Below, in pieces: positions 7,939-8,862 of a stretch of 9,395 bases of DNA (within the stretch, counting starts at the first letter, position 1; each line of letters starts with the position of its first letter). The stretch lies in IMG/VR virus record IMGVR_UViG_2690316166_000023; one strand, given 5' to 3'. The stretch is from a virus (taxonomy: Duplodnaviria > Heunggongvirae > Uroviricota > Caudoviricetes). A model generated the notes under the pieces. The model searched no databases. It worked only from the letters and a program-made list of their open reading frames with translations, and was not told where the DNA came from. A program made the position numbers and the translations under genes.

Positions 7939-8049
7939 ACGCTTAAAAACTCATTCTAAAACTCAAAAGAAAAGCGCCGATTTAGTATCAAATAAGTTGC
8001 GTATCGGTGTTTTTCAGCGGTATCAAAAAAATCGCCGCGCTATAATCAG

Positions 8050-8862
8050 GTGAAATATCAGGCCGCGCATCACCAGCTGGTTGCCAGTGCGCTAGCCACC
8101 AAAATCGCCCATGAGGTTAACCCGCAAAATCAGGTGGGCTGTATGCTGGCGGGCGGTAACTTCTACCCTTACAGTTGCAAGCCGGAAGATGTCTGGGCGG
8201 CGCTGGAGAAAGACCGGGAAAACCTGTTTTTTATCGATGTGCAGGCGCGGGGCACGTATCCGGCTTACTCTGCCCGCGTATTCCGCGAAAAAGGGGTAAC
8301 CATCGACAAAGCACCGGGCGATGATGAAATCCTGAAAAACACCGTCGATTTTGTCTCTTTCAGCTATTACGCCTCGCGCTGCGCCTCGGCGGAGATGAAC
8401 GCCAACAATAGCAGTGCGGCGAACGTAGTGAAATCGCTGCGTAACCCGTATCTGCAAGTGAGCGACTGGGGCTGGGGTATTGATCCACTCGGTCTGCGTA
8501 TCACCATGAACATGATGTACGACCGTTATCAGAAGCCGCTGTTTCTGGTGGAAAACGGCCTCGGCGCAAAAGATGAACTTGCTGCCAATGGCGAGATTAA
8601 CGATGACTATCGCATCAGCTATTTACGCGAACATATCCGCGCAATGGGCGAAGCGATTGCAGATGGCATTCCGCTGATGGGCTACACCACCTGGGGCTGT
8701 ATTGATTTAGTCTCCGCCTCTACGGGTGAAATGAGCAAACGCTACGGTTTTGTCTACGTAGACCGTGACGACGCAGGCAACGGCACGCTGACGCGCACAC
8801 GTAAGAAATCGTTCTGGTGGTATAAAAAAGTGATTGCCAGTAATGGGGAAGATTTAGAGTAG
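8050..8862 (+). pseudogene. 3' fragment (about 270 codons) of a GH1 6-phospho-beta-glucosidase gene (AscB/BglA family), with the 5' half missing
   Basis: Translation carries GH1 C-terminal signatures: ...[13 protein letters not shown]..., nucleophile motif [62 protein letters not shown]..., ending ...[12 protein letters not shown]. The frame is open only back to 7996 and the upstream NEP acid/base motif is absent; full-length GH1 enzymes are about 470 aa. Confidence 0.7.

Follow-up and report, generated by a model that had tools for sequence, protein, structure and literature searches.

The window analyzed here is a 9,395-nucleotide stretch (IMG/VR record IMGVR_UViG_2690316166_000023), which corresponds to bases 3-9397 of contig CXEP01000023.1 (28,750 bp) in the Shigella sonnei draft assembly GCA_001256535.1. 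It contains the right-hand genes and right end of a transposable prophage, followed by the 3' part of the chromosomal gene ascB. We consider it highly probable that positions 1-8044 represent the right-hand part of a Mu-like transposable prophage, of the type of Sp18 from Escherichia coli O157:H7 Sakai, inserted in S. sonnei ascB. Both the prophage family and its mechanism are known, and the window adds a further copy in a new site. The features at the prophage end and in the target gene are as follows.

7939 to 8044 (106 bp): right end region (attR), from the mom stop codon to the terminus ...CGCCGCGCTATA; the conserved sequence stops here in 32 of 32 right ends
7984 to 7992, minus strand: R3-like putative transposase-binding core, TTTGATACT, 53-61 bases from the terminus (75-83 in full-length copies); contains the first GTATC
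8001 to 8005, plus strand: middle GTATC, a partial match to the 9-mer (CCGATACGC on the minus strand) with more than two mismatches to TTTGATACC; TTATC in a relative (locus L027)
8019 to 8027, minus strand: terminal putative transposase-binding core, TTTGATACC, 18-26 bases from the terminus; the left end has the same 9-mer at 18-26
8045 to 8048: right copy of the target-site duplication ATCA, from comparison of intact ascB with both junctions; the left copy lies at 10608-10611 of locus L040 (see below)
8045 to 8862, plus strand: 3' part of ascB (6-phospho-beta-glucosidase, GH1), codon 204 to stop; 99.3-99.6 % nucleotide identity to E. coli ascB; Pfam Glyco_hydro_1

The junction with the chromosome lies between 8044 and 8045 (...GAAAAGCGCCGATTTAGTATCAAATAAGTTGCGTATCGGTGTTTTTCAGCGGTATCAAAAAAATCGCCGCGCTATA/ATCAGGTGAAATATCAGG..., the slash separating element from ascB). 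When the sequence was compared with intact E. coli ascB by megablast, by alignment and base by base, identity began at 8045; positions 8043-8044 read TA versus GG at the same place in intact ascB, so that host homology begins exactly at 8045. An earlier reading made without database searches (the sequence-only reading) had placed an abrupt start of host homology within 8041-8052, inside a GH1 frame lacking its 5' half, and the junction was indeed found in that interval. The same reading had let the element end in CA at 8047-8048; this CA turned out to be ascB sequence within the duplicated ATCA, and the element ends at 8044 in ...CTATA. When positions 7400-9395 were searched with megablast against 5,426 complete E. 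coli genomes, 8045-9395 alone aligned (99.3-99.6 % identity), a match that spans ascB plus the neighbouring higA-like gene. Intact ascB of E. coli strain S3 (locus L001) has 474 codons; the window enters it within codon 204, and no ascB 5' half is present in the window. The truncated AscB encoded at 8050-8862 corresponds to CSS21743.1, deposited as 'cryptic 6-phospho-beta-glucosidase [Shigella sonnei]'.

In the assembly collection (15 billion proteins), this truncated AscB was found on one contig only, CXEP01000023.1. For the missing half of the gene, four N-terminal AscB fragments were predicted beforehand by combining a 4- or 5-bp duplication with a left end beginning TATAACC or TGTAACC. The protein predicted from the 4-bp duplication and the TGTAACC end, AscB(1-203) followed by HVTR, was found once (CSS60974.1, S. 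sonnei), and the other three predicted read-through proteins (5-bp duplication and/or TATAACC end) were absent from the same collection. CSS60974.1 is encoded on CXEP01000076.1 (L040), in the same assembly GCA_001256535.1, directly before the left end of the phage. After the left end, L040 carries a gene for a 176-amino acid repressor-like protein (opposite strand), a ner-like gene (HTH_35), a gene for a 696-amino acid protein containing HTH_Tnp_Mu_1 and Mu-transpos_C domains, and the beginning of one more gene. The search for the other GH1 half that had been proposed earlier was therefore successful: the 5' half of ascB borders the opposite end of the phage, and the target is duplicated.

The left junction reads ...GAAAATCAGGATCA/TGTAACCAGGTGAATCATTTGATACCAACGAGGG... 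(in close-up ...CAGGATCA/TGTAACC) and the right junction ...GCTATA/ATCAGGTG, compared with ...AATCAGGATCAGGTGAAAT... (in close-up ...CAGGATCAGGTG...) at the target in intact ascB of L001. ATCA occurs as a single copy in intact ascB and once at each junction after insertion. These observations confirm the insertion and exclude a stray duplicated ascB fragment. That the ascB piece could be a duplicated or rearranged fragment, or the junction an assembly chimera, would suit a fragmented draft assembly, a contig that begins inside the prophage and a segment order upstream of the invertase gene unlike that of the E. coli copy; it is nevertheless highly improbable, since the reciprocal junction (ascB codons 1-203 joined to the left end) occurs in the same assembly at the matching base with ATCA duplicated, and since the right terminus falls on the exact base where 31 other copies end. 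As each of the two AscB fragments was found on a single contig, the insertion appears private to the strain and recent. In pattern scans, the left end and the right junction of the window had no match in the genome_contigs set, the predicted left junction and the right junction had none in metagenome_contigs, and the right junction was not found in viral_contigs.

The prophage insertion inactivates ascB. This gene is part of the cryptic asc operon for arbutin, salicin and cellobiose, and the knockout is likely to have little consequence for the S. sonnei strain because the operon is cryptic. Upstream of the ascB 5' half, in the place where ascF is expected, no long gene was called at L040 7271-7796 and 9376-9923; the region is partly N-masked.

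When positions 2900-8027 were compared with complete E. coli genomes, they were 99.9-100 % identical to segments of about 13 of them, and more distant matches were seen in 1,320. In the matching genomes, the segment is the right end of a prophage of about 38.5 kb, and in the full copies L004, L006, L007 and L052 the two termini are 38.5-38.8 kb apart. The left part of a full copy contains, in order, a repressor, a ner-like helix-turn-helix (HTH) gene, a 'Mu transposase C-terminal domain' protein, an AAA ATPase, Gam, Mor and lysozyme. Mu-type head genes (gpT family), sheath, tube and tape measure, a DNA circularization protein, baseplate and tail fibre follow in the middle, and the right part consists of the invertase, a SASA/DUF6645 protein, DUF1378, DUF826, Com and Mom. 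The annotation also lists Mu-like gp46/47, and no integrase was found in the four annotated full copies. The transposase shares 97.4 % identity with its Sakai Sp18 counterpart and, over the full length, 22 % with MuA.

Copies of this phage were found in more than 20 different places in E. coli and Shigella genomes; they interrupt genes, and the sites have no core sequence in common. Besides ascB, the insertions lie in dgcE, bcsA, sorM, an sgrR-family gene and a ydcF-family gene, and over 15 more flanks were recorded; all of these sites differ from one another. Pattern scans of IMG/VR yielded 15 left and 16 right ends, and a look-up of the exact Mom protein, which is indexed in 3251 blocks of the assembly collection, added 10 further contexts. 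With the E. coli loci and Sp18 included, 32 right ends and 19 independent left ends were read in total. In the IMG/VR pairs 2617271340, 2617270962, 2529292909 and 2585427751, the two flanks were not shared and probably belong to different copies in each genome; these pairs were not counted.

An ordinary temperate prophage or island placed by a site-specific integrase, with ascB merely holding the attachment site, would also join prophage genes to a host gene, and a serine recombinase gene does lie at 3000-3572. We regard this explanation as next to impossible, because the recombinase is a 190-amino acid Gin-type invertase (74 % identical to Mu Gin) and not an integrase, because the full copies lack an integrase and encode a MuA-type transposase and a MuB-like ATPase, and because the more than 20 unrelated sites have no common att core, the flanking repeat being a 4-bp copy of each target. 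Mu-like transposition, which the sequence-only reading had preferred to integrase-mediated insertion, is borne out by the MuA-type transposase, the lack of an integrase, the many loci and the target duplication.

When the termini were aligned, the right terminus was ...GCTATA (...ATCGCCGCGCTATA) in 32/32 right ends, with unrelated flanks beyond it and no CA. Left ends start with TGTAACCAGG (TG) at 12 sites, this copy and Sp18 among them, and with TATAACCAGG (TA) at seven. As both left-end forms occur at several insertion sites, both appear able to transpose. The transferred strands end in A-3' at both ends, preceded by T at the right and by C or T at the left.

Direct repeats of 4 bp flanked the prophage in all seven paired insertions, namely ATCA (ascB), TACG (dgcE), GACG (bcsA), AACA (sgrR-family gene), AGAA and AACA (two IMG/VR genomes) and TAAA (sorM, Sp18). 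Extension to a fifth base failed on the left side in 7/7 and on the right side in 6/7, matching once (bcsA, GACGT). When the empty bcsA and dgcE sites were rebuilt with a single 4-bp copy, they matched thousands of genomes in one ungapped piece (236/236 bases, 100 %); with ascB in L001, three of the seven duplications were thus checked against empty sites. The Sp18-type family makes a 4-bp duplication, in place of the 5 bp that had been expected for a Mu-like element.

Two other models of the duplication were tried and rejected. A 5-bp duplication was considered in both registers (the first T of the element or its terminal A counted as target); the fifth base mismatches save for the one right-side match in bcsA, and the 5-bp AscB read-through proteins are absent. 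A heteroduplex model, in which a 5-bp stagger is followed by conversion of the first base, predicts mixed outcomes, and none were seen.

The last bases of the prophage carry the motif GTATC three times on the plus strand (7985-7989, 8001-8005 and 8020-8024), two of them as GTATCAAA (7985-7992 and 8020-8027). The three motifs, the shared longer form of two of them and the first position agree with what had been noticed from the letters; the second and third positions had been given one base too high. When 2000 sequences were simulated from a first-order Markov model of the window, only 2 contained three same-strand GTATC within 41 bp. For the 8-mer TTTGATAC, 0.23 occurrences would be expected in the window; there are two, and both fall within the final 60 bp of the element. 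When the end was compared with the inverted opposite end, as the sequence-only reading had proposed, the motifs proved to belong to a 9-mer, TTTGATACY (TTTGATAC followed by C or T), which reads inward from each terminus and is present three times at each full-length end. With the terminus as base 1, the left end (S. sonnei and E. coli copies) has this 9-mer at 18-26, 113-121 and 165-173, and the full-length right end has it at 18-26, 40-48 and 75-83. The right end in the window has just 18-26 and 53-61. The outermost 9-mer is equidistant from the cleavage point at both ends, with a spacing of 22 bp between the two outer sites on the right. The middle GTATC of the window (8001-8005) is, by its sequence, probably not a full site.

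The MuA sites of Mu have a similar arrangement, with R1-R3 close-packed at the right and L1-L3 as one terminal and two distal sites at the left. By analogy, we infer that the TTTGATACY 9-mers are the cores of transposase-binding sites, equivalents of L1-L3 and R1-R3. The suggestion that the GTATC repeats may be terminal recombinase-binding sites is thereby strengthened, the 9-mer being inverted at the other end at an equal distance from the terminus. The repeats could instead serve as a terminator, a host-factor (IHF) site or a repressor/Ner operator. They sit just 3' of the mom stop codon, as such a role would allow, and with a transposase only 22 % identical to MuA the Mu site consensus is unusable as a test. 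Such a role is still quite improbable, as the 9-mer is repeated three times, inverted, at the opposite end with the outermost copy at 18-26 at both ends, as the layout (right 18, 40, 75; left 18, 113, 165) parallels that of the Mu sites, as consecutive right-end sites are 22 bp (about two helical turns) apart, and as no Rfam family was matched in the window, this region included. It had also been said that no canonical Mu end is visible. This is true; it forms no obstacle to transposition, since the lineage has its own ends and a transposase distant from MuA.

The right end of locus L045 has a run of eight A's, in place of seven, between its terminal 9-mer and the last 13 bp, and the distance from site to terminus is shifted by one base.

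Measured from an anchor placed at the mom stop codon, the terminus is 112 bp away in the window copy and 134-135 bp away in nine other copies. Full-length right ends read ...CAGCGGTATCAAATGAAATGCAAATCGGTATCAAAAAAATCG... (core ...GCGGTATCAAATGAAATGCAAATCGGTATCAAAAAAATCG...), and the window reads ...CAGCGGTATCAAAAAAATCG... (core ...GCGGTATCAAAAAAATCG...). Exactly 22 bp, one repeat unit, are gone between two copies of CGGTATCAAA, and the deletion junction lies somewhere in 8018-8027. The deletion fuses the R1-like and R2-like sites, so that the second site is removed and the third brought 22 bp closer, with the terminal spacing kept. It was seen in 0/31 of the other right ends read directly. When the complete E. 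coli genomes were searched with a 165-bp query, 225 of them matched, at 272 places in all, and none of the best-covered 12 matches listed reached 8044; they end at 8027, the top one at 8032, and the top one was checked and is of full length. A 42-bp deletion-specific megablast query and its 42-bp full-length positive control were both without a match, so this search was uninformative and was not used. In S. sonnei 53G (locus L043, HE616528.1 2898047-2901946) this phage occupies another site, beside genes for a DUF4376 protein and an ipaH-type NEL effector; its right end is of full length, and over 2.5 kb it deviates from the window copy by a single base.

The 22-bp shortening could be an assembly or sequencing artefact, the real end having the normal 134 bp, as it was seen in a single short-read draft, is absent from the roughly 300 other copies and lies between two 10-bp direct repeats. 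We consider this unlikely, because a 10-bp repeat is shorter than the usual assembly k-mers and its collapse is not expected, because the remaining 2.5 kb is 99.9-100 % identical to other copies and has no further anomaly, and because precise loss of a unit between direct repeats is a common real mutation. R1 and R2 both belong to the core sites of the Mu transpososome. By analogy, the loss of one unit in the window copy probably impairs or abolishes further transposition, and this prophage copy may be stuck in ascB. Since the insertion seems to be recent and specific to this strain, the deletion is most likely the later event.

From these data, the following course of events can be proposed. 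The phage would enter ascB by strand transfer by a DDE transposase, using a MuA-family transposase and a MuB-like ATPase that are both encoded at the far left end, on the other contig. The transposase would join the A-3' ends to target phosphates staggered by 4 bp, versus 5 bp in Mu, and T rather than C may precede the terminal base of the transferred strand. The 22-bp unit would have been lost by slippage or recombination between the two CGGTATCAAA repeats.

Taken further, the Sp18-type lineage may be a natural Mu-family system with a TA-3' end (always at the right, polymorphic between C and T at the left) and a 4-bp target stagger, of which the window copy is a natural R1/R2-fusion mutant. 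We advance this tentatively and rate it at somewhat below even. Several points weigh against the reading as an Sp18-type, Mu-like prophage inserted by transposition. The role of the 9-mers as transposase sites is argued from their position, orientation and analogy with Mu. The Sp18-type termini lack the TG...CA pair, which is given as conserved in all Mu- and B3-like phages and prophages described so far (PMC8705779), and the 4-bp duplication differs from the Mu value, the target duplication being 5 bp in Mu and 6 bp in B3 (PMC8705779). The 22-bp deletion is known from one short-read draft assembly, and a crippled end is hard to square with an apparently recent, strain-specific insertion, unless the deletion arose afterwards. 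As the non-TG...CA termini and the 4-bp duplication are shared throughout the family, they speak against the phage being Mu itself and not against transposition. In the literature searched, no report of Sp18-type termini or of a 4-bp duplication in Mu-like phages was found.

If the account is true, a cousin of the Mu transpososome that accepts TA-3' ends bears on cleavage-site choice and target spacing in DDE transposases, and the window copy shows how such prophages become grounded. In addition, base-exact ends are now given for a prophage family that is present in hundreds of E. coli and Shigella genomes.

Among the known systems compared, Sp18 and the Sp18-like phages of Shiga toxin-producing E. 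coli are the closest. Their left end is identical to that of the window phage over the first 34 bases (TGTAACCAGGTGAATCATTTGATACCAACGAGGG), and the right terminus and the end repeats are shared, the last 134 bp being the same save for the 22-bp deletion and single-base differences. The genes, among them those for invertase, SASA/DUF6645, DUF1378 and DUF826 as well as com and mom, also follow one another in the same order. Sp18 is flanked by the 4-bp repeat TAAA and sits in sorM (PMC7430833), whereas the window copy sits in ascB of S. sonnei and is without 22 bp of its right end; the com-mom regions of the two are about 95 % identical. Sp18-like phages were described as Mu-like, probably intact and non-circularising, with strain-specific sites (PMC2669165, PMC7430833, PMC10132054). 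Their insertions are found at various loci, also inside Shiga toxin (Stx) phages (PMC10132054), and no circularised form of Sp18 was detected in Sakai (PMC2669165). Two Stx phages harbour an 'inserted Mu-like phage' whose transposase is 97.6 % identical to that of the window phage.

The RefSeq feature 'prophage Sp18' (L052, NC_002695.2 5040971-5079729) is shifted at both borders: it begins one base within the element on the left and extends five bases beyond it on the right. The base-exact Sp18 is L052 1171-39925, flanked by TAAA. The shifted RefSeq boundaries would fit an assumed, imperfect 5-bp repeat (TAAAT/TAAAG).

The plan of Mu, D108 and SfMu (c, ner, A, B, gam, mor, lysis, head and tail genes) is shared with the window phage, as is their right part, consisting of an invertible tail-fibre segment, gin, com, mom and the right end. 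With Mu, the window proteins share 75 % (Mom) and 74 % (Gin) identity. Random insertion with a short target duplication is alike in both, and so, as a sequence pattern, is the presence of three repeated sites per end, close-packed at the right and one terminal plus two distal at the left. Mu differs in its transposase (22 % identical), its unrelated end sequences and site consensus, its right terminus of CA-3' versus TA-3' and its duplication of 5 versus 4 bp. In the Mu record, com and mom come immediately after gin, whereas the window phage has three extra cargo genes there. At the nucleotide level, the com-mom segment alone aligned with Mu (about 72 % identity). Judged by these sequences, the window phage would not belong to Mu in the strict sense (genus Muvirus).

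By transposase, the nearest isolated phages are the Yersinia phages vB_YpM_5 and vB_YpM_6 (80 % amino acid identity), from different hosts. Klebsiella Kp4866-3, Tongde, VW-6B, SuMu and 3927AP2 (transposases 43-57 % identical), also from different hosts, are more diverged; the SuMu paper gives no data on termini or duplication. A first departure from the conserved TG-CA ends was described in the Leptospira 'TA-TA' prophages of WETA1 type (PMC8705779). These have TA...TA ends, as compared with all right ends and 7/19 left ends with TA in the Sp18-type family, and they differ in a B3/Tn552-type transposase, a 6-bp duplication and an unrelated host and sequence.

The remaining prophage genes in the window, all on the plus strand, are the following.

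3000 to 3572, plus strand: Gin/Pin-type serine DNA invertase; Pfam Resolvase and HTH_7; 74 % amino acid identity to Mu Gin; identical to WP_000904914.1
3658 to 5712, plus strand: 684-amino acid SASA (sialate O-acetylesterase-like)/DUF6645 cargo protein; Pfam PF03629 and PF20350
5857 to 6329, plus strand: two small cargo genes, DUF1378 (5857-6039) and DUF826 (6075-6329); from Pfam, RefSeq names in E. coli copies and the translations
7047 to 7247, plus strand: com (zinc-finger translational activator of mom); RefSeq 'Com family' coding sequence in identical copies; CxxC...CxxC as in Mu Com
7201 to 7938, plus strand: mom (DNA adenine modification), the last gene before the right end; Pfam PF25680 Mom, E=1.6e-77; 75 % amino acid identity to Mu Mom

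The maximal open reading frame of mom begins at 7006, and identical copies carry a RefSeq 'Mom family' coding sequence. The three cargo genes between invertase and com (3658-6329) have no counterpart at this position in Mu. DUF1378 and DUF826 are typical of lambdoid prophages. The SASA esterase could act as an O-antigen or sialate deacetylase that affects host range or superinfection.

Upstream of the invertase, runs of N at 487-665, 708-1838, 1859-2357 and 2447-2799 mask most of the tail-fibre/invertible-segment region. The same runs are present in the independently fetched contig (L039), so the masking stems from the data source. This part of the window is not collinear with the E. coli PO06021 copy (L002): 32-486 corresponds to L002 5186-5640 in the same orientation, whereas 666-707 (L002 5068-5027) and 2358-2446 (L002 3878-3790) are reversed. 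An inversion beyond the normal G segment, another tail-fibre cassette or an assembly problem at the contig end could account for it.

On the chromosomal side, the intergenic region after ascB (8866-8960) contains palindromic units resembling repetitive extragenic palindromes/bacterial interspersed mosaic elements (REP/BIME), namely GCCGGATGCGGCGTGAACGCCTTATCCGGCCTAC and a second partial unit. They are probably behind the very many megablast places per genome that were obtained with the 7400-9395 query. A higA-like HTH_3 antitoxin gene (8976-9395, minus strand) lies just downstream of ascB, and the window stops at its start codon. The gene for the HigB toxin is likewise downstream of ascB (L039 9394-9705, with the antitoxin at 8976-9395 of the window).

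In three of the full copies, RefSeq lists an 80-nucleotide 'tRNA-OTHER' between the minor head and virion morphogenesis genes (L004 21717-21796, L006 19244-19323 and L007 18674-18753).

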